From the IMG/VR virus record IMGVR_UViG_3300030376_005037, positions 1 to 39,575 of that record: a DNA stretch of 39,575 nucleotides, one strand, 5' to 3'. The notes beneath the pieces were generated by a model. That model worked only from the letters and a program-made list of their open reading frames with translations, had not been told where the DNA came from and searched no databases. Both the position numbers and the translations under genes were made by a program. Below are positions 27,759 to 36,952 of this stretch, piece after piece (position 1 is the stretch's first letter; each line of letters begins with the position of its first letter). The DNA comes from a virus. Its lineage: Duplodnaviria > Caudoviricetes.

Positions 27759-28173
27759 ATAAGTCTGCCTCAGCTTGTCTTCTTCTAGTAAGTCCTTCGA
27801 GGACTTTCCCACCTGCTTTGTTCCATCTCATAATTTGAGCAGGAACTCCTGCATAGTCGCCTGAGTTTAATACTTTAAGTAGTGTACTTGATTTTAAGTT
27901 TCCACCTCCTAAATTATAAACCCACGATACTAATGCGTCATATTGATTTTGATTTAATGGCACGCTTACTAAAGTGTTTACATAGTTTTCGTACTCATGT
28001 AGTTCTTCTACTAACATTTCATCTGCTTGTTGCTCTGTAATTACATCGCCTTCTTGCACACCTTTAATATGTCCGTAGCCTATAGTCCAAACGCCTGCTG
28101 GACATTTATACGCTTTTAGTTCACACCCTTCAAAGTGTTTGATTAAATCGATTCCATTTTGACTTGTATTCAT
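27748..28173 (-). CDS. Lysozyme / endolysin (GH24)
   Basis: FEG..L.AY.CPAGVWTIGYGH, QYDALVS..YNLG, GL.RRR.AE motifs; start taken at MNTSQNG. Confidence 0.95.
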   Translation of the reverse strand: MNTSQNGIDLIKHFEGCELKAYKCPAGVWTIGYGHIKGVQEGDVITEQQADEMLVEELHEYENYVNTLVSVPLNQNQYDALVSWVYNLGGGNLKSSTLLKVLNSGDYAGVPAQIMRWNKAGGKVLEGLTRRRQAEADLFGH

Positions 28174-28487
28174 AATTTTTCCATATAAAAGCTTTCGCCA
28201 CAGCCACAGCGTCCACTTTCTTGTTTTTCGTTTTGGATTACAAATTCTTCTTGCACTCCATTTATTTGCCACTCTAGTGTGGCGTCTTTTACATAGTCCC
28301 AACTGAGACTATCTACTGCTAAGATGTTTTTATATACCACATCAGTTAAATCAGGCATATCTGCATAACTTAACTCATATGTATAGCCACCACATCCTCC
28401 TCCTTTTACGGAGAGACGAACGCCCCAAGCATCGCTTGAGGCAGTTCTCTCTTTTAACTTTGTTAATGCGTCATCTGTTATGTTCAT
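28170..28487 (-). CDS. iscA: A-type Fe-S cluster carrier (IscA/HesB)
   Basis: GGGCGGYTY and CGCGESF motifs. Confidence 0.93.
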   Translation of the reverse strand: MNITDDALTKLKERTASSDAWGVRLSVKGGGCGGYTYELSYADMPDLTDVVYKNILAVDSLSWDYVKDATLEWQINGVQEEFVIQNEKQESGRCGCGESFYMEKL

Positions 28488-28642
28488 AATATAGGCAACA
28501 TTGCTGTATACATAAATCCTATCATGATTCCAAACATAATGACAATTTCACAAGTTTGTCCATCGGGACAGTATTTTGCTTTAATTTCTTGAAACGCTTG
28601 CACACTAGCATAACGATTCAAGAATCGTCTTGCTGTTTGCAT
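28484..28642 (-). CDS. Small membrane protein (52 aa, not in ORF track)
   Basis: MQTARRFLNRYASVQAFQEIKAKYCPDGQTCEIVIMFGIMIGFMYTAMLPIL; AAGGAG RBS and ATGA coupling. Confidence 0.7.
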   Translation of the reverse strand: MQTARRFLNRYASVQAFQEIKAKYCPDGQTCEIVIMFGIMIGFMYTAMLPIL

Positions 28643-28652
28643 TTCGTTCTCC

Positions 28653-29084
28653 TTAGCCTATCTGTATTGTTTTAGGCTTCTCTGCATCAGGTGTATTCAC
28701 CTGTAGGTTAATTACTAATAAACCATTTCTAAACCCTGCATCTGATACTTCTACCCAGTCGCCAAGCGTAAAGACTCTACTAAAGGTTTTACCACTTAAT
28801 CCCTTATGGATGTAGCGTTCCTCATCAGAATCTAACTCTTGCTTCTCATTACCTTCAATGGTAAGCTTATTTTTGTGTTGCTTGATATCAATATGTTCCT
28901 TTTTCCAGCCTGGCAATGCCATCTCGATTCGGTATCCGTCCTCGCCGATAGCTACTAGGTTGTATCTAGGGTAATTACTAAGAGGCGATGTTTCGGCTCT
29001 TCTCGTTAGCTCATTGTGTAAGCGGTCAAATCCGACAAATAGTTTGTCGAAGTCATTAAAGTTTAATGCTGTTAATCCAGTCAT
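28653..29084 (-). CDS. hsp20: Small heat-shock protein (Hsp20 / IbpA-like)
   Basis: VGFDRL, NYPRYNL, HKGLS.K.F.R.F.L, NGLL.I motifs; AGGAG RBS before MTGL. Confidence 0.93.
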   Translation of the reverse strand: MTGLTALNFNDFDKLFVGFDRLHNELTRRAETSPLSNYPRYNLVAIGEDGYRIEMALPGWKKEHIDIKQHKNKLTIEGNEKQELDSDEERYIHKGLSGKTFSRVFTLGDWVEVSDAGFRNGLLVINLQVNTPDAEKPKTIQIG

Positions 29085-29100
29085 TTGGTTCTCCTGTTTT

Positions 29101-29141
29101 GCGTCCTTTCGGCACGCGCTGTGAACTCCTTTCGGTAGTTC
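29101..29141 (-). promoter_or_regulatory. Tandem bulged CC-GAAA-GG hairpins in the hsp20 5' UTR
   Basis: GAACT-A-CC-GAAA-GG-AGTTC and GCGT-G-CC-GAAA-GG-ACGC immediately upstream of the RBS. Confidence 0.65.
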
Positions 29142-29312
29142 GGTTAATATAAATATGTCTTGCAAAAACCCGCTCACTGGTGGAAGTGAGACTCCTACCT
29201 CGCCCTCGGAAAGCTTTGTTTCCTACTCGTGCCAGACATAGTAGGTATTTGTTTTGGCAGTTCCTACTTCTGCGCGTAAAATCACTGTGAAATTTTTAAA
29301 TTTCACTATATA

Positions 29313-29341
29313 ATTATACCAAAATTACACCACTTTGTCAA
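29313..29341 (-). promoter_or_regulatory. Sigma70 promoter for the hsp20 operon
   Basis: TTGACA-17-TATAAT. Confidence 0.88.
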
Positions 29342-29351
29342 GAATTATTTT

Positions 29352-29480
29352 TCAGTCGTCAAAGTCGATGTCTCCTTTTTGCTTTAGATAATCTAATGTG
29401 TTTCCTATTCCAACTCTGCGTCCCACATTAAACATAATGTGTCCACTAGCTAAGCCTGTGAATATAATCCAAGCTGTCAT
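29352..29480 (-). CDS. Small membrane protein (42 aa, not in ORF track)
   Basis: MTAWIIFTGLASGHIMFNVGRRVGIGNTLDYLKQKGDIDFDD; ATGA coupling. Confidence 0.6.
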   Translation of the reverse strand: MTAWIIFTGLASGHIMFNVGRRVGIGNTLDYLKQKGDIDFDD

Positions 29481-29773
29481 TTGCCAATCCATTTCACATC
29501 TCCTTTAGGAATTACTTGGTAAGCTCCTTTGTTATAAGCTGGAGCTACAGTATAACCCTTACTAATCTCTAACCTTTCTTCTTTGGAAAGTATATCACTT
29601 TCATACTTAGGTTTACTACTAGGTTTAAGACTAGGCACTACTGGAGTTGTGTCTGGCTTTTTAAAATTTTTCTTTTGTTGTGCTACAAACTTAGGGCGTG
29701 CCTTAGTTTTGTAAGCATTTGTTTTTCTTTTGCGACCACTCGGAGAGTATCGCATACTGCCTTGTATTATCAT
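29477..29773 (-). CDS. Conserved basic phage protein
   Basis: YTVAPAYNKGAYQVI motif recurrent in phage hypotheticals. Confidence 0.75.
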   Translation of the reverse strand: MIIQGSMRYSPSGRKRKTNAYKTKARPKFVAQQKKNFKKPDTTPVVPSLKPSSKPKYESDILSKEERLEISKGYTVAPAYNKGAYQVIPKGDVKWIGK

Positions 29774-30405
29774 TGTAATATATCCACTATTTTTGTGATA
29801 AGTGCTAGTCGTCCAGCTTTCTTATCGTTATAATCTATACTGTGCCACTCACCAAGTGTAGTGAATACTCTTTCTTTGAGAATAGTCATCTGGTCATACT
29901 TTGAAAGGGCAACAGCGTCGTTCGGTGAAAACTTCCATTTTGTGAGGGGAGAACTCTGTCTTGCACCAATCCGAATAGCTTGTTCTTCTTCTGAAATACT
30001 AAGCCATAGTTTGATGAAAGTAATATCTTTTTGTTTGCTCTCCCACTCCAAAACTTTATCCATGAACTTGTTGTATTGCTTGTCTGTGCACCAGCCGTTC
30101 AACTTCTGAACCATAGCACGGGAGTACCAGCTTCTGTCATAGAAAACTATTTGGTTATCACTAGGCAACTTCTTCTTCCAAGACTTGAGCCAGTGCTTCA
30201 TGTCCCATGCGCTAGGTTTGCTACTTAGGGAGATTGAGTACTTGCTTGTTGGAAGGTAGTGCGTAAGCTCACGAATAGTTCCTGTTTTACCAGCTGTGTC
30301 GCGTCCTTCTAAAATTACTGCAACTCTGCCGAAATCTTTCTCTACGATTTGATTGAGCAGAATTTGTTGTTCTTCTAATTTGGTTATGTTCATTTCTTTT
30401 TTCAT
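29770..30405 (-). CDS. ppk2: Polyphosphate kinase 2
   Basis: EGRDTAGKTGTI, YDRSWYSR, KLWLSIS.EEQ, KWKFSPND motifs. Confidence 0.93.
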   Translation of the reverse strand: MKKEMNITKLEEQQILLNQIVEKDFGRVAVILEGRDTAGKTGTIRELTHYLPTSKYSISLSSKPSAWDMKHWLKSWKKKLPSDNQIVFYDRSWYSRAMVQKLNGWCTDKQYNKFMDKVLEWESKQKDITFIKLWLSISEEEQAIRIGARQSSPLTKWKFSPNDAVALSKYDQMTILKERVFTTLGEWHSIDYNDKKAGRLALITKIVDILQ

Positions 30406-30411
30406 ACCTAT

Positions 30412-30440
30412 ATTATACTAAAATATAAGCGCCAGGTCAA
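30412..30440 (-). promoter_or_regulatory. Sigma70 promoter for ppk2
   Basis: TTGACC-17-TATAAT; ATG 6 nt downstream. Confidence 0.82.
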
Positions 30441-30471
30441 GAAATTTTTGAAGAGCAGTTGAAAATAGTTC

Positions 30472-30500
30472 TTGACTTCTGCTCTCTATTTTGGTATAAT
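30472..30500 (+). promoter_or_regulatory. Divergent sigma70 promoter for the HTH-rpsU cassette
   Basis: TTGACT-17-TATAAT; ATG 6 nt downstream. Confidence 0.85.
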
Positions 30501-30506
30501 AGTCAT

Positions 30507-30689
30507 ATGAAAATTACAAATAACAAGTGGACTGATTCGGAAGTCCGCCTACTCAAAAAGGAATATGGTAAAGCGAATACTAGCGATCTCGCTGTTCGTC
30601 TCAAGAAGACGCCGACTGCCATTTATTCCAAAGTTCAATACCTACGCAAACGAGGCTGGACTTTTGATTCCACTCGAAGGCGTAAATGA
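30507..30689 (+). CDS. Small Myb/GcrA-like HTH protein
   Basis: KWTDSEVRLLK..Y.....DLA.RL.KT..AIYSK pattern. Confidence 0.75.
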   Translation: MKITNNKWTDSEVRLLKKEYGKANTSDLAVRLKKTPTAIYSKVQYLRKRGWTFDSTRRRK

Positions 30690-30925
30690 GAAGAAAGCAA
30701 AATAACTCAAATTACAACTTTGACAGGCTACTGAGAAATTTCAGAAACAAAGTCAAACGAAGTGGACTAATGGACGATATAAGGAAAAAAGAGTATTACG
30801 AGAAGCCAGCACAACGAAAACAAAGGCTCAAAAACGCTGCCAAGCGGAGAGAAGCAAAGCGAAATAAAGAAACTCAACTTCAACCATTGAGGTTAAAGGA
30901 TCGCCTACCCTTCAGAAAACGATAA
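30686..30925 (+). CDS. rpsU: 30S ribosomal protein bS21
   Basis: FDRLLRNFRNKVKRSGLMDDIRKKEYYEKPAQRKQR...AAKRR. Confidence 0.88.
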   Translation: MRRKQNNSNYNFDRLLRNFRNKVKRSGLMDDIRKKEYYEKPAQRKQRLKNAAKRREAKRNKETQLQPLRLKDRLPFRKR

Positions 30926-31755: not shown

Positions 31756-31993
31756 TTTTCATAAACTCATCTACCGATAGTTCTTCACTAGAATCAATCC
31801 ATTGCGAATCGATTTGAACTTCTTGTTCTTCTACTTCTCTGATTTCCACATTTTCGTGGTGTTCTCCACAGCAATAGTCATCTAAAAACTCTTCTGCTTG
31901 TTTTTCAGTTTCACAAACTATCTCTAGTTCTTCTACTACAAATACTGTTTTTTCTACTTTTGCTATATACTTTTTCATTACATGGTCAGCCAT
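31724..31993 (-). CDS. Hypothetical acidic protein
   Basis: GGAGG RBS. Confidence 0.7.
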   Translation of the reverse strand: MADHVMKKYIAKVEKTVFVVEELEIVCETEKQAEEFLDDYCCGEHHENVEIREVEEQEVQIDSQWIDSSEELSVDEFMKIDGGQTAYRD

Positions 31994-32324
31994 TCTGAGC
32001 CTCCAATATTCTTTTAGATACTATTTCGCATAGAAATTTAATATCTTGCTTTGGGGCTTTCTCCAACCCCATAATTTTACTACTATCTATATCTAAGAAC
32101 TCTGCCATTGTCGCCACAATCTCTTGTTTAGTCATTGGCACTTCGCCAGTTTTAGTTTTATAGATTTGTTTTTGATACACGCCTTCGCGTGATAGTTTAC
32201 CTATGATAGATTTTACACTCTTATTGTACCTTTCCGCTAGATTATCTACTGTTTCTCTACTTGGATTGGTCATGTAGGCTTGAGTCATTTCTTCTACCTG
32301 TTCGCTTGTATAGTTAGCCGCCAT
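31986..32324 (-). CDS. T5 A2/D3-family DNA-binding protein
   Basis: NYT.EQ...M...Y..NP.RETV..LA....KSVKSIIGKLSREGVY; paralog of 35206-35526. Confidence 0.75.
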   Translation of the reverse strand: MAANYTSEQVEEMTQAYMTNPSRETVDNLAERYNKSVKSIIGKLSREGVYQKQIYKTKTGEVPMTKQEIVATMAEFLDIDSSKIMGLEKAPKQDIKFLCEIVSKRILEAQNG

Positions 32325-32533
32325 TATTTATAATATAAATTTAAGCCTAAGAAGCAGTCTACATTGATGCCTACATCTAATTTTGCATTACCGCCGCTAC
32401 TTGCTATTAGTGTTGTCTTACCACTTGCGCTAGGCCCAAGCTCTTTCTTTGTGTCGATTTGTATGGTTAGTATGCCATCTCTATCAACATGATAGTCTAT
32501 GCTATCTTCTTTACCCATTTTTATAAAGTCCAT
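32324..32533 (-). CDS. Conserved small hypothetical protein
   Basis: LTI.ID...LGPSASGKT.LIASSGGN motif; GAGGA RBS. Confidence 0.7.
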   Translation of the reverse strand: MDFIKMGKEDSIDYHVDRDGILTIQIDTKKELGPSASGKTTLIASSGGNAKLDVGINVDCFLGLNLYYK

Positions 32534-32958
32534 TATTTGTCCTCTGGTTTATCTTTGTTAATATTAAGGTCGAGCGTTAGTTGGACTACTGCGTCCTCTA
32601 ACTCTTTAGCCATGTTTAACATTTTATTGCCTAGCTCGTCCAACTCTGATTTTGGTTCGTCTGGTATATCGAAGTCGGGAGTGAACTCAAAGTCATCTCC
32701 CCATTCGTTTTCAAAATCCATTACTGGTTTCTCTCCAGCACTAAAAAAGTTTTCTCCATTCATGATAGCAAACTCTTTTAGAATACTTTCTGCCTCTTCA
32801 TGATTCTTTGCTAGTGAGTTCTTTAAATAAGCAATATCATCTTCGATATACTTATTCTCTATATCAATCTCATCTATTCTAGCCTGCATCATTCTTACTT
32901 TTTGTTTTTGGCTTTGTTCCTTTTTATTTGGGAACTGAATAATATTATCTTTTGCCAT
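32533..32958 (-). CDS. Hypothetical acidic coiled-coil protein
   Basis: AAGGAG RBS before MAKDNIIQFP. Confidence 0.7.
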   Translation of the reverse strand: MAKDNIIQFPNKKEQSQKQKVRMMQARIDEIDIENKYIEDDIAYLKNSLAKNHEEAESILKEFAIMNGENFFSAGEKPVMDFENEWGDDFEFTPDFDIPDEPKSELDELGNKMLNMAKELEDAVVQLTLDLNINKDKPEDK

Positions 32959-33271
32959 CAATGGTCTCCTTTGTCGCTGCAAAGTTTACAAATACAGAAC
33001 CTAGTTCCATACCCTTTCGTTTTGCTACTCCTTCCAATAGGTTTTCTACTTTGGCTATAGCTTCTTCTTCGGTAGCGGCATTGACTATAAAATCTTCGCC
33101 TTCTTTACAATCTAGCGAATAATCTACATTGAGTAGCCACTTCTGACTGCCTACTACTGTGCCATCGCCTGTTCTAACTATGCCATCATTTTGTGATACG
33201 GATAGCTGATTCATTTCAAAAATTGTTTTGGCTGCCTTTGTTGGTTTGGCATTTGCTGGTTTGTCATACAT
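32945..33271 (-). CDS. Hypothetical protein
   Basis: GGAGG RBS and TAATG coupling. Confidence 0.7.
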   Translation of the reverse strand: MYDKPANAKPTKAAKTIFEMNQLSVSQNDGIVRTGDGTVVGSQKWLLNVDYSLDCKEGEDFIVNAATEEEAIAKVENLLEGVAKRKGMELGSVFVNFAATKETIDGKR

Positions 33272-33570
33272 TACGCAAACCTCCCACCATTCTTTTTAGC
33301 ATAATCTAATAATGCTTGTCTTGTTCTCTCTATCTGCTCGCCATTTACAACATAAACTGTTTTGATACCTCTACGAGCAAGCTCGTTTCTGTACTTAGTT
33401 CTGTGTTTTGGTTTAGTTCTGCTACTGTTAATAGCCTCGAGCAATGTTTCTACGCTTTGGCATTTTAAGTAGTGATGTTGCCACTTTTTAACTTTTGGCT
33501 GAGTGCTCATTCTCGCACCTCTAGCGTTTTTAGCATATACCCTGTCGCTTGGTTTGAATTTAGCTGGCAT
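33271..33570 (-). CDS. Basic hypothetical protein
   Basis: AGGAG RBS; PK.R.K.RNEL.RRG motif. Confidence 0.7.
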   Translation of the reverse strand: MPAKFKPSDRVYAKNARGARMSTQPKVKKWQHHYLKCQSVETLLEAINSSRTKPKHRTKYRNELARRGIKTVYVVNGEQIERTRQALLDYAKKNGGRFA

Positions 33571-33733
33571 CTTGTTCTCCTGTAATTTGATTGTCTTGTA
33601 TTTGAAATGCTATCTTGTCAGATAACTCCTGTGCTAGTTGAGGTTCTTTCTTGACTAACAGATGTACTAGCCCATCTGTGTCTATTGTTTTTATTAAGCG
33701 AACCCCTAACTCTGTGCCATAATCAATAATCAT
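33560..33733 (-). CDS. Small protein (57 aa, not in ORF track)
   Basis: MIIDYGTELGVRLIKTIDTDGLVHLLVKKEPQLAQELSDKIAFQIQDNQITGEQDAS; GGAGG upstream. Confidence 0.6.
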   Translation of the reverse strand: MIIDYGTELGVRLIKTIDTDGLVHLLVKKEPQLAQELSDKIAFQIQDNQITGEQDAS

Positions 33734-33908
33734 TGTGCTTCTGAGCCTCCCTGATTGGTTTCATATGTCTTTCATGTCTGTCCCACGCATCTTCTTCGAG
33801 AGGCAAGTCGTCTATAGGTTTACTACTTAGTTTTGCTACTAGGTGGTTCCACAAGCGTCTGGCATTTCTGCGTTTGATAGCGTTTGCTAATGTTTTTCTT
33901 CGCGCCAT
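33723..33908 (-). CDS. Hypothetical protein
   Basis: AAGGAG RBS and TAATG coupling. Confidence 0.7.
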   Translation of the reverse strand: MARRKTLANAIKRRNARRLWNHLVAKLSSKPIDDLPLEEDAWDRHERHMKPIREAQKHNDY

Positions 33909-34141
33909 TACTTGTTTCTCCTTACGCCTACTGCGTAAACTCTCTCTGGACTTGTTCCTACTGTGCTTTCTGGCTCAACGATAACTGCTTTAGCATCTAC
34001 TGTTTGAATGTTTGTGCCATCGCAGTAGCCTACTAGCTTTCTTCTTTTGATTTCTTGTCTTGCTAGTTTGCCATCGGAGTCTTGTTGAAAACGCATAGCA
34101 TGAAGTTGTTTGTCTGTTTTGGTTAAAAATGTTAAGTTCAT
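33908..34141 (-). CDS. Hypothetical protein
   Basis: AGGAG RBS before MNLTFL; the longer track ORF runs through the promoter. Confidence 0.7.
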   Translation of the reverse strand: MNLTFLTKTDKQLHAMRFQQDSDGKLARQEIKRRKLVGYCDGTNIQTVDAKAVIVEPESTVGTSPERVYAVGVRRNK

Positions 34142-34187
34142 GTCGCTTCTCCTGTTGAAATTTTTTGTTATTTTTTTAATTATGTAT

Positions 34188-34216
34188 ATTATATCACGCG
34201 ACAAGGGTATTGTCAA
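34188..34216 (-). promoter_or_regulatory. Sigma70 promoter
   Basis: TTGACA-17-TATAAT. Confidence 0.88.
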
Positions 34217-34237: not shown

Positions 34238-34264
34238 AAAAAAACCCAGCACATTGGCTGGGTT
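34238..34264 (-). terminator. Intrinsic terminator closing the large non-coding unit
   Basis: AACCCAGC-CAATGT-GCTGGGTT running into T7 on the minus strand. Confidence 0.88.
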
Positions 34265-35066
34265 CAAAGTTTTTGATTCGCACTTCATATCTAGTTCATC
34301 AATTACTCGTGCGTGCCTGCTTGCGTGAACAAAAGTCTTACGGCTTAGAGGTTTTGACACTTCACATAGGTACGCTATGTTCCTGATGCCTGTTTGAGTT
34401 CTCCTCAGTAAGTCTCAGCGAGCAGTGAATATATTAGGGATAAAGCTCTCCGCGTATGACTTCGCCCATTTGTTATTTACTTCACTCGTCTTTTTTATAT
34501 TGACTACCTACTTTGGGAGGGCATGCCCAAGCCAATCTTTCGGATAGTCATAGCTTATCATTTCTGTTTCGTCTAAGCCAGCAACGAATATGTTATTATA
34601 TCGCATACTGAGTGGGGAGAGATAGTCTTTCCACTCGCTATCCATAATGGTCTCGCTGAGTATGAGAGCAAGATTTCGTTCTGCTAGACGCTGGTGTTGT
34701 TATGTTTACTACTGGTCACGCCAACAAGCCTCTGTAGGTTTGGTCAGCGAAGATTTACTACTAATTTATCCTGCCTATCATAGCCAGAGGCTAAGGACTT
34801 ATGGTAGGGAATAGATTTACTACTTTGCTGTCCGAGCATTCCGCTCCCGAGATAATGTCGTTGTATCTACGGCTCAATCACGCTGCACTTGCGCTGTGCA
34901 GGTCGGCAAACACTTATCGTATGTCTACTGACGCCTACTCCTTTGACTTGTGCCTCGTATGTAGGTTAAGGCATTGAGAATGAGTAGAGGAGTGTATTTA
35001 TTGGCTATTGCTCAATCATAAAGCCCGAAGGCTATTTTTTACTCTTGGTCTCTTTTCTCAATTTCT
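34238..35066 (-). ncRNA. Candidate large (~830 nt) structured non-coding RNA
   Basis: Perfect promoter and terminator bracket a region with no - strand ORF of 60 aa or more, higher GC, many nested stems and three AGUAGUAAA motifs. Confidence 0.7.
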
Positions 35067-35072
35067 GTATAT

Positions 35073-35101
35073 ATTATACAAAATTTTGAACGCCATGTCA
35101 A
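35073..35101 (-). promoter_or_regulatory. Sigma70 promoter for the large RNA
   Basis: TTGACA-17-TATAAT with A/T-rich UP region. Confidence 0.9.
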
Positions 35102-35205: not shown

Positions 35206-35526
35206 TTAGCTGATTGAGTCAACTAATCTTTGTAAGTCTGCTTTGCTAGCTTTTACAAGAGTTGGTATTGCTACCTCGAAGTGTGCTTCAAGCTGAGCAA
35301 CCAGTTCTGCTTTGCGAACAACAGGCTCGCCTGTTTTGGTTACTTTTGGCTGAGCAACATACACGCCTTCTCTTGATAGCTTAGCAATGATGCTTCTTAC
35401 TGATTTGCCGAATTCTTGAGCAAGAGCTTCAACAGTTTCTCTTGTTGGGTTAGCAACATATTGCTCAGTCATAGATGCGACCATTTCATCTGTGTAGTTT
35501 TTAGGTCTGATTGCATTGTCTGCCAT
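35206..35526 (-). CDS. T5 A2/D3-family DNA-binding protein
   Basis: NYTDEM...M...Y.ANP.RETV.ALA.E.GKSVRSIIAKLSREGVY...RKAELV...L.KA.K..L; AAGGA RBS. Confidence 0.78.
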   Translation of the reverse strand: MADNAIRPKNYTDEMVASMTEQYVANPTRETVEALAQEFGKSVRSIIAKLSREGVYVAQPKVTKTGEPVVRKAELVAQLEAHFEVAIPTLVKASKADLQRLVDSIS

Positions 35527-35624: not shown

Positions 35625-35780
35625 CTAAATGATGCCATTTTCTTCAAGAGCTAGTAGCGTTAGCACTAGCACCCAGAAGCCTACCATTGTTATCACAATT
35701 TCGTAGCGTTCCCAAATGTCGCGAGCACAATACAAATTATGCTTTACTTTCCATTTGGTTATTCTATTTCTCAATTTCAT
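35625..35780 (-). CDS. Small membrane protein (51 aa)
   Basis: MKLRNR...VITMVGFWVLVLTLLAL; ATG 6 nt after the -10 box. Confidence 0.65.
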   Translation of the reverse strand: MKLRNRITKWKVKHNLYCARDIWERYEIVITMVGFWVLVLTLLALEENGII

Positions 35781-35786
35781 AACTAT

Positions 35787-35815
35787 ATTATATAGAGCGT
35801 AATCAATCCTGTCAA
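35787..35815 (-). promoter_or_regulatory. Sigma70 promoter
   Basis: TTGACA-17-TATAAT. Confidence 0.88.
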
Positions 35816-35968
35816 TATATTTTTCAAAATAGCACTCATTATTTAACGCCAGCGAATTCTCGGGGGCGGGACGCGAAAATCCCCTCGCTTCGCGAGAAAT
35901 CCTTCGAAAAGTGCCAAAATCTTCGCAAATCGTCCCAAATCTGTGCATAACCCCGCGCAAGTTTCTTC

Positions 35969-35998
35969 TTGACACGCGCAACCCCGCTATGGTATAAT
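35969..35998 (+). promoter_or_regulatory. Sigma70 promoter, no ORF
   Basis: TTGACA-18-TATAAT. Confidence 0.75.
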
Positions 35999-36132
35999 AT
36001 CCAGGGTGGGGACGGGGATATTTCTAGTTTTTGCACTCGCTCGCGCGAAATCTTCATTTGTTTACTACTTAGCTACGCGTCGGCGCCGAAATATCTCATT
36101 TATCTACTACTATTGGCGCCCCTGCAACCACC

Positions 36133-36158
36133 AAAAAACCCGTTATAGCGGGGTTTTA
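36133..36158. terminator. Terminator-like hairpin
   Basis: AAAAAACCCGT-TATA-GCGGGGTTTT. Confidence 0.55.
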
Positions 36159-36221
36159 ACCACCTTCGCCTATGAAAAGACCTAATAGTTGAATTATTTT
36201 GCGCTAAACCTAAAAAACACC

Positions 36222-36250
36222 TTGACAGGCGTAAATTTTTGTGGTATAAT
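36222..36250 (+). promoter_or_regulatory. Sigma70 promoter, no ORF
   Basis: TTGACA-17-TATAAT. Confidence 0.8.
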
Positions 36251-36303
36251 CGGCGCGAAGTGGGTTTGAGCGATAGTAAGTGCTTACTATCAGTTGGAGG
36301 CAC

Positions 36304-36327
36304 AAAAAACCCCGCTCTTGGCGGGGT
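36304..36327 (-). terminator. Intrinsic terminator
   Basis: ACCCCGC-CAAGA-GCGGGGT followed by a T run on the minus strand. Confidence 0.85.
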
Positions 36328-36342
36328 CAGTTGCCTCTATTC

Positions 36343-36492
36343 TTAGCTGAGGAGCTTTAGTACCATTTGTAGTGCTTCAATGTTAGCTCTGCTTAGGGAT
36401 TGAGCGATTTTTGGTTCTACGCCTTTGGCGATGATGTCGTTGATGAGTGCCTTTTTAGTTGGGCGAACTTTTTTTGTATCTTTGTCTTGCAT
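36343..36492 (-). CDS. Small protein (49 aa, not in ORF track), paralog of 38676-38831
   Basis: MQDKDTKKVRPTKKALINDIIAKGVEPKIAQSLSRANIEALQMVLKLLS; AGGA RBS; has its own promoter and terminator. Confidence 0.8.
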   Translation of the reverse strand: MQDKDTKKVRPTKKALINDIIAKGVEPKIAQSLSRANIEALQMVLKLLS

Positions 36493-36543
36493 GGCTTTTC
36501 CTGTTTTGGTCGGGGCTCATTCCCCTCCCTCTTTATACCCATA

Positions 36544-36572
36544 ATTATACAGAGCCAACCCCGCCAAGTCAA
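36544..36572 (-). promoter_or_regulatory. Sigma70 promoter
   Basis: TTGACT-17-TATAAT. Confidence 0.85.
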
Positions 36573-36615
36573 GACTTTTCTTTAATTTTATTTTACGCTT
36601 TTTTCAAAATTTTCC

Positions 36616-36644
36616 TTGACAGGCTCAGATTTTTATGTTATAAT
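36616..36644 (+). promoter_or_regulatory. Sigma70 promoter upstream of the repeat array
   Basis: TTGACA-17-TATAAT with TG extension. Confidence 0.82.
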
Positions 36645-36673
36645 GGGCGCCGCCGGTGAAAGACTTAATCTCG

Positions 36674-36783
36674 TTTCACTACTCTACTCGGCGCTGCCGC
36701 GCAAAGACTTTACATTTCATTTCACTACTCTACTCGGCGCGCAAGCACACAAATCATTCTCATTTCACTACTCTACTCGGCGC
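36674..36783. repeat. 21-bp direct repeat x3
   Basis: TTTCACTACTCTACTCGGCGC at 36674, 36720 and 36763; spacers of 25 and 22 nt. Confidence 0.92.
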
Positions 36784-36793
36784 GCTTGCGCGC

Positions 36794-36818
36794 AAAAAAA
36801 AAAAAAAAAAAAAAAAAA
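36794..36818. repeat. A25 homopolymer
   Basis: Direct reading. Confidence 0.9.
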
Positions 36819-36835
36819 GAAAATTTCCAAATGCG

Positions 36836-36854
36836 AATGAGAATCATTCTCATT
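36836..36854. promoter_or_regulatory. Fur-box-like palindrome
   Basis: AATGAGAAT-C-ATTCTCATT, a perfect 9-1-9 close to the AATGATAAT-N-ATTATCATT consensus. Confidence 0.65.
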
Positions 36855-36867
36855 TAGAATTTGAGCC

Positions 36868-36910
36868 AAAAAAAAATAGGCGATTGAGTTTCCCCAATCG
36901 CCTAATAAAA
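36868..36910. terminator. Intrinsic terminator ending the pre-early block
   Basis: TAGGCGATTG...CAATCGCCTA stem followed by T9 on the minus strand. Confidence 0.85.
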
Positions 36911-36952
36911 ATCTTAATCTTTTGGTTGCGTGTTATTTGGCATAATTGCCGA

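Follow-up and report, generated by a model that had tools for sequence, protein, structure and literature searches.

The stretch of DNA analyzed here (39,575 nt; hereafter, the window) makes up approximately 40% of a linear virus record. Its gene content is that of a T5-type phage, with D5-like regulators, a split NAD ligase, an SbcCD-like nuclease, and a DNA polymerase that is approximately 44% identical to Demerecviridae polymerases. On its minus strand, a sigma-70-type promoter that agrees with the consensus at 12 of 12 positions and an intrinsic terminator enclose approximately 829 nt, in which the longest minus-strand ORFs encode 46 and 45 aa (Table 1). A first-pass annotation of the sequence had described a perfect promoter and a clean terminator around about 830 nt with no minus-strand ORF of at least 60 aa, and our measurements bear out each of these points. 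Its statement that the genome is otherwise gap-free did not hold, because the region 35750-36950 is largely non-coding as well. In the part of this region at 35800-36950, a 21-nt GC-led repeat that includes the word AGTAG occurs three times, together with one long homopolymer run, and each strand carries 12/12 promoters (the plus strand at 35969, 36222, and 36616). This part possibly corresponds to the T5 injection-stop region. Elsewhere in the window, a cluster of host-like genes (28170-30925) includes those for Hsp20 and ribosomal protein bS21 (30686-30925) and, presumably, those for an iron-sulfur assembly protein and polyphosphate kinase 2. A host search based on bS21 did not yield an organism.

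Table 1. Coordinates of the RNA gene, its signals, its modules, and the adjoining protein gene in the window
Feature	Position	Strand	Remarks
Anchor gene, 106-aa small DNA-binding protein	35206..35526	-	phrog_1725, E 2.8e-6
Sigma-70-type promoter	35073..35101	-	TTGACA-17-TATAAT; start predicted near 35066
Non-coding RNA, ~829 nt	34238..35066	-	Ends predicted from promoter and terminator
5' domain	34973..35062	-	z -2.5
UUCG hairpin, in 5' domain	35033-35022	-	
Module A, bulged-A hairpin in A-rich loop	35019-34994	-	Profile matches 60/111 RNAs; stem covaries
Hairpin CUGCAC/GUGCAG	34883..34901	-	Covariation in close relatives
Module B: unpaired GYRAUUGA, two stacked stems, then GAGC/GCUC hairpin	34834..34884	-	Near-universal core
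RRUAA-loop mini-hairpin region with three AGUAGUAAA copies	34700..34830	-	Closing pair covaries C-G/U-A
Nested domain CGUCUA/UAGACG > AACGAA/UUCGUU > CAUACU/AGUAUG > GAGUGG/CCACUC	34570..34690	-	z -2.6
Exchangeable cassette UGACUA/UAGUCA around UUGGG/CCCAA	34501..34550	-	Slot contents differ among relatives
Module F: AGUGAA/UUCACU stem, variable inner hairpin	34423..34487	-	In 8/14 close relatives, inner part swapped
3' pseudoknot domain: GUUCA 34330-34326 with UGAAC 34298-34294, in loop of stem 34313-34309/34283-34279	34272..34345	-	Covariation
Intrinsic terminator	34238..34265	-	34265-34242 plus U tract, to 34238; next 12/12 early promoter follows at 34216-34188

The gene upstream of the RNA, here called the anchor gene, has its own 12/12 promoter (35601-35572), and its product shows a weak likeness to T5 A2 (probability 3.4%, E 0.013). 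A paralogue is located at 31986-32324, 2 kb downstream of the RNA. Relatives were collected by fetching loci via the 106-aa anchor protein. Among the matches listed, from which the sample was drawn, 185 of 240 loci (window included) had a promoter-to-promoter interval of at least 450 nt right behind the anchor gene; 34 others were cut short, and 21 had no candidate, including truncated contigs and the most distant relatives. The intervals comprised 136 distinct sequences, of which one with a 228-aa ORF was left out of the RNA set, and removal of redundancy gave 111 RNAs of 438-1396 nt (median 951). In these relatives the anchor gene always adjoins the RNA. Among cultured phages, neither the RNA nor the anchor protein nor module H (described below) had a match. 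The module letters A, B, F, G, and H are labels of the present analysis.

Several observations indicate that the interval acts as RNA. UUCG-capped hairpins were found 51 times on the sense strand of the 111 RNAs, compared with 5.2 times after shuffling, and the corresponding numbers for the antisense strand were 8 and 8.8. Contigs from RNA libraries of four studies cover the slot, including a 591-nt contig that matches 34325-34915 with zero differences; these contigs come from runs chosen for holding the stretch, they do not show strand, ends, or level, and DNA carry-over, judged from the flanks, is possible. Scattered short RNA-library pieces only were found for the early genes at 31800-34200, and this low cover of the flanking genes is a weak hint because of the way in which the runs were chosen. 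It is very improbable, and largely refuted by the data, that the stretch instead serves as a DNA element (an origin or an injection stop) or as a cluster of small ORFs. The repeat-rich non-coding stretch at 35800-36950 lies close by and 34 of the 136 intervals have an ORF of at least 60 aa, but the UUCG excess is confined to one strand, G-U/G-C changes occur in the stems, and RNA libraries cover the interval. The six minus-strand ORFs (26-46 aa) within the RNA of the window are not kept, their starts being lost or their frames broken by indels in most of 11 close relatives.

The density of stems, which had been put forward as support for a structured RNA, is no evidence by itself, because the folding energy was no better than that of shuffled sequences: the z value was -1.19 for the whole RNA and averaged -0.06 over 143 windows drawn from up to 30 randomly chosen relatives, and downstream coding windows were lower than the RNA (mean -1.05 versus -0.06). 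GNRA loops were enriched on both strands (112 versus 67 and 60 versus 37) and hence were not used. The repeat AGUAGUAAA, reported to occur three times in the RNA, is present at 34705, 34754, and 34816, but it is not specific to the RNA; the window holds 10 copies, all on the minus strand and 7 of them outside the RNA, and the density was 3.7 per 10 kb in the RNAs versus 3.1 in downstream genes. Separately, the word AGTAG[TAC]AAA was found 21 times on the minus strand of the whole window and 0 times on the plus strand, and it is also found in relatives. In the listed genes there are 6 exact copies, compared with 2.2 after synonymous shuffling. It is possibly a genome-wide one-strand signal, e.g., a nick site, a protein-binding site, or a recombination signal.

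The complementary stretches named in the first-pass annotation are present in the sequence, and several of the stems were backed by 14 close relatives. Both-side changes were counted 9 times in CUGCAC/GUGCAG and 12 times in GAGUGG/CCACUC, CAUACU/AGUAUG had 3 one-side changes, and GAGC/GCUC and the 5'-end hairpin AGC-UUCG-GCU were backed as well. The stems CGUCUA/UAGACG and AACGAA/UUCGUU are retained around inserts of ~300 nt; the insertion site lies near 34600 in the nested domain, and L086, L088, L089, and L107 have ~300 nt extra there. On the other hand, the proposed stem AGCCUCUG/CAGAGGCU was unsupported (53 unpaired cells versus 22 unchanged), and ACUCCU/AGGAGU and UGCCU/AGGCA were weak and not supported by the relatives. 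The UGACUA/UAGUCA stem with UUGGG/CCCAA exists in the window, but none of the 14 close relatives has this cassette at the corresponding site. The word GYRRUAARYC, which corresponds to the RRUAA mini-hairpins, occurs at 8.0 per 10 kb in the RNAs versus 1.5 in genes.

Because the related sequences are not independent, the covariation counts given here are not probabilities. In core B (34884-34843, 42 nt), 91% of cells were paired among 50 sequences, with 52 both-side changes versus 14 after shuffling. With an E cutoff of 1, a model built from these 50 sequences (R1) had matches in 64 of 91 sources, once each and on the sense strand, with 57 matches below 0.01, many of the matches being training sequences. 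It gave no further match in the window and none in 48 kb of T5. The strong viral matches to a pattern of core B lie at the RNA locus wherever their flanks permit checking. No kissing partner of the core-B loop was found beyond chance (5.4 versus 5.6 nt). In the 3' pseudoknot, 99% of cells were paired among 12 sequences, with 23 both-side changes versus 6.6 after shuffling, and the partner was an exact match to the 5-mer of the same RNA in 31 of 33 RNAs, compared with 48 of 748 swapped pairs; six different 5-mers were used. Eight relatives (L040, L053, L058, L059, L060, L062, L063, and L066) contain, as a module, a compact H-type pseudoknot whose loop is AUAAAAG and whose stems both show compensatory changes. 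A general count of A-loop pseudoknots gave no excess over shifted controls (45 versus 63 and 30). Shorter promoter-led RNAs (~330 to >1000 nt) without a core-B match are located at or near the slot in the more distant relatives L064, L065, L067, and L073.

Comparison of the relatives revealed a mosaic RNA composed of exchangeable, nested, covarying modules, of which only the 42-nt core is near-universal. While the anchor protein is 97-99% identical, the RNA differs by hundreds of bases. In a phage with a 99% identical anchor protein, the distance between promoters is 1322 nt versus 885 nt in the window, and the additional bases are located at the 34550-34501 slot and within the AACGAA/UUCGUU helix. 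This slot contains module H in L001, is empty in L002, and holds module H wrapped around the cassette of the window in RNA contigs of run X15. For pairs of phages whose anchor genes are less than 75% alike, the median alignable share of the RNA is 0. Of 78 near-identical blocks (at least 45 nt and at least 92%), 31 join phages with anchor genes less than 75% alike and RNAs alignable over less than 30%; L049 and L118, for example, whose anchor genes are 68% identical, have 82 identical bases in common. On a tree of the anchor gene, which rests on ~300 nt and can itself recombine, modules H and J needed nearly as many changes as after shuffling of labels (25 versus 26.4 and 8 versus 8.7), whereas modules G and O needed far fewer (9 versus 29 and 4 versus 18), which suggests that H and J are mobile cassettes placed on lineage-bound scaffold parts. 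Of the 120 loci listed for a broad pattern of module G, 4 belong to the family, and most are chance matches. Module order was colinear in 116 of 122 pairs that have two or more shared blocks, and this largely kept order points to a scaffold with slots and not to a freely shuffled array. Core B is located upstream of the anchor gene in seven relatives, in a second promoter-led RNA in the five that were read. In L129, L130, L142, L144, and L150, the anchor gene lies between two RNA genes that divide the modules between them, and the upstream RNA runs into a short ORF.

Module H has 27 invariant bases and was 98.7% paired among 22 sequences, with 46 both-side changes versus 14.3 after shuffling. 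Its variable stem bears many different inserts that are themselves modules present elsewhere. It occurs twice in L049, and one internal duplication was found among 60 intervals. The full H core had 45 viral matches, of which 41 belong to the RNA family and 4 stand alone between genes in another phage group (L478:1794-1854 on the minus strand, L488, L489, and L510). These four lie between small genes of marine phages, keep the 27 invariant bases and covarying stems, and have no core B nearby; the larger contig carries podovirus-type head genes, with no anchor gene found, both records being incomplete. A stand-alone placement between phage genes is a known setting of self-cleaving ribozymes. The stand-alone module H is a candidate new aptamer or ribozyme. 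We also considered that some of the modules might be undescribed ribozymes or signals for processing, and that the transcript might give rise to several small stable RNAs, as in the T5 tRNA region, where eight stable RNAs have no known function. The invariant 27-base junction with fully variable stems and the solitary occurrence of module H would suit such a role; however, stand-alone module H had no match to Rfam, ribozymes included, the window RNA is devoid of module H, and nesting within long-range stems is ill suited to the release of units. RNA contigs of 591 and 893 nt also run across module borders, although contigs cannot reveal cuts. Overall, we regard this explanation as improbable.

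GOLLD and ROOL RNAs are often located beside tRNA genes and have one extensive secondary structure across each family. The first-pass annotation had proposed a large structured non-coding RNA, either a divergent member of such a class or a new class. The covariation, the one-strand UUCG excess, the RNA-library cover, and the lack of an Rfam match support a new class. In the search that it had suggested, neither the window nor any of 40 related loci yielded a match that reached the Rfam gathering score. GOLLD, ROOL, and OLE were not found in the region when E values up to 10 were admitted, nor in 14 loci with E values up to 5, and only terminator-type chance matches, or weak ones outside the RNA, appeared, and neither Rfam nor ARAGORN matched known ribozymes, RNase P, tmRNA, or group I/II introns. 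A likeness to group II domain 5, twister, or twister-sister was considered and dropped, with no support from Rfam. The alternative of a divergent GOLLD or ROOL is unsupported given the lack of a match at E up to 10, of tRNA neighbors, and of a common global fold; no tRNA gene was found in the window (~40% of the genome) or in 50 related loci.

The RNA might still be an ornate RNA-only assembly of the ROOL/GOLLD kind, a kind that self-assembles into a cage, in which the modules would serve as parts for tertiary contacts (A-rich loops, mini-hairpins, and pseudoknots) and the inserts would be tolerated surface expansions. Both known families are reported to be phage-encoded RNAs of 600-900 nt with their own gene, pseudoknots, and no known function, and in GOLLD the 5' region and a linker are described as variable (PMC12286853). 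The size, phage location, covarying pseudoknot, mostly colinear modules, and recurrent RRUAA mini-hairpins of the present RNAs, together with the variable parts reported for GOLLD, fit this explanation. Unlike GOLLD and ROOL, however, the present family exchanges, nests, and duplicates its modules, divides them even over two RNAs, and has no family-wide fold beyond the 42-nt core, with an alignable share whose median is 0 below 75% anchor identity. The core loop lacks a partner of its own beyond chance, the core moves to a second RNA in seven relatives, and module H is found without the rest. We consider such an assembly rather unlikely.

A parallel with the stable RNAs of T5 had also been drawn. 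The T5 record contains rnaX, an annotated stable RNA of 719 nt (AY543070, 40848-41566), which lies in the tRNA region; it has no sequence similarity to the window RNA. By blastn, rnaX had no match among the 111 RNAs at E up to 2, and the module profiles gave only matches with E above 0.2 in 48 kb of T5. Both are long non-coding RNAs of Demerecviridae-type phages with their own promoter, but rnaX starts with a tRNA-like fold, belongs to a tRNA region, and has no likeness in sequence or modules. Its 5' part (L244:41432-41503) scores as a tRNA at 38.3 bits, though not so annotated. A tRNA-like element is also located between the anchor gene and the RNA promoter in L019 (525-603), L008, L014, L023, and L057, and is absent from the window; in L019, it scored 26.7 bits, below the gathering score, and was missed by ARAGORN.

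We also weighed whether the RNA is a scaffold or modulator for translation or phage proteins that binds ribosomes, the phage bS21, or the neighboring DNA-binding protein. The phage does encode bS21, and the RNA is always beside the anchor gene. There are also precedents: sequestration of RpsU/bS21 has been proposed for OLE, and ribosomes are reported to be pulled down with GOLLD (PMC12286853). Against this, the RNA has no sequence mimicry of rRNA, it shifts by hundreds of bases while the anchor protein stays 97-99% identical, and the adjacency may merely mark the place of the strongest early promoters. This role appears to us quite improbable.

With the gene anatomy, the presence in RNA libraries, the folding of the modules, the mosaic make-up, and the occurrence of one module alone in another phage group established, we tentatively propose that this ~830-nt, separately promoted RNA of an uncultured marine T5-related phage is a trans-acting early decoy panel for host RNA-binding or RNA-cutting proteins. 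Consensus promoters beside a repeat-rich stretch suggest that the host polymerase would transcribe the RNA directly after DNA entry. Lineage-specific scaffold domains (core B, the 5' module A, and the 3' pseudoknot) would bear mobile cassettes plugged into stem ends, and short conserved junctions would be the sites of the recombination through which the cassettes travel. The presence of invariant loops at covarying stems points to recognition, the invariant loop of each cassette being the site that a putative host protein would bind, and the rapid turnover and trade of modules are suggestive of selection by a changing partner.

Long RNAs that display many small hairpins in trans are known from sponge RNAs of the CsrB/RsmZ type. 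The present RNA resembles them in this respect, but it has no Rfam match to them and GGA-loop repeats are absent from the enriched words of the family. A closer model for how the RNA may work is pseudo-ToxI of phage phiTE, reported to be a non-coding RNA decoy evolving by expansion and recombination (PMC3475682). Pseudo-ToxI is made up of a single unit repeated in tandem, a mimic of a known host antitoxin, whereas the window RNA consists of many unlike nested modules for which no host counterpart was found; tandem pseudoknot repeats were not detected in the region, and no repeat family there exceeds two copies. With this analogy as a precedent, a decoy panel may well be the reading that best unites the gene, the modules, and their exchange, though we hold it with some doubt.

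The lack of a host counterpart of any module weighs against the decoy reading. Mimicry of E. coli rRNA and four tRNAs was not above the control (30 versus 34). Core B was found in 0 of 151 genomes of one bacterial class, and no true case of the H core was found in 401 genomes of one bacterial class, the single match being a 3' half without the 5' half. A search of bacterial and archaeal genomes for the core pattern gave a best score of 25 bits, which was taken as chance (80 loci scored of at least 120, in about half of the collection). Furthermore, the nesting and the pseudoknot suit a tertiary-folded RNA equally well. A broader description, which we offer with more reserve, is that of an RNA gene-cassette array: a strongly promoted early transcript whose stems might be slots for new protein-binding or catalytic modules, traded from lineage to lineage and even across unrelated phage groups as part of an arms race against the defenses of hosts.

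Literature listings and the opening parts of abstracts contained no published description of this RNA family. In PMC10690425, six motifs had no match in the six supplementary files searched; single modules may be among the 10,006 short candidates that this source reports.

Taken together, the locus encodes a real and widespread phage RNA without a catalogued relative, and the exchange of nested modules is its distinguishing trait. Each of the known giant phage RNAs retains a single fold. What persists in this family is a slot, a small core, and a common stock of modules, and the RNA is rebuilt faster than the neighboring protein changes. If the RNA assembles into a particle, it would be a natural plug-in RNA architecture of the ROOL/GOLLD kind. 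If the modules are decoys, they would provide many new motifs, each small enough for separate testing, and would point to undiscovered RNA-sensing defenses of hosts in the ocean.
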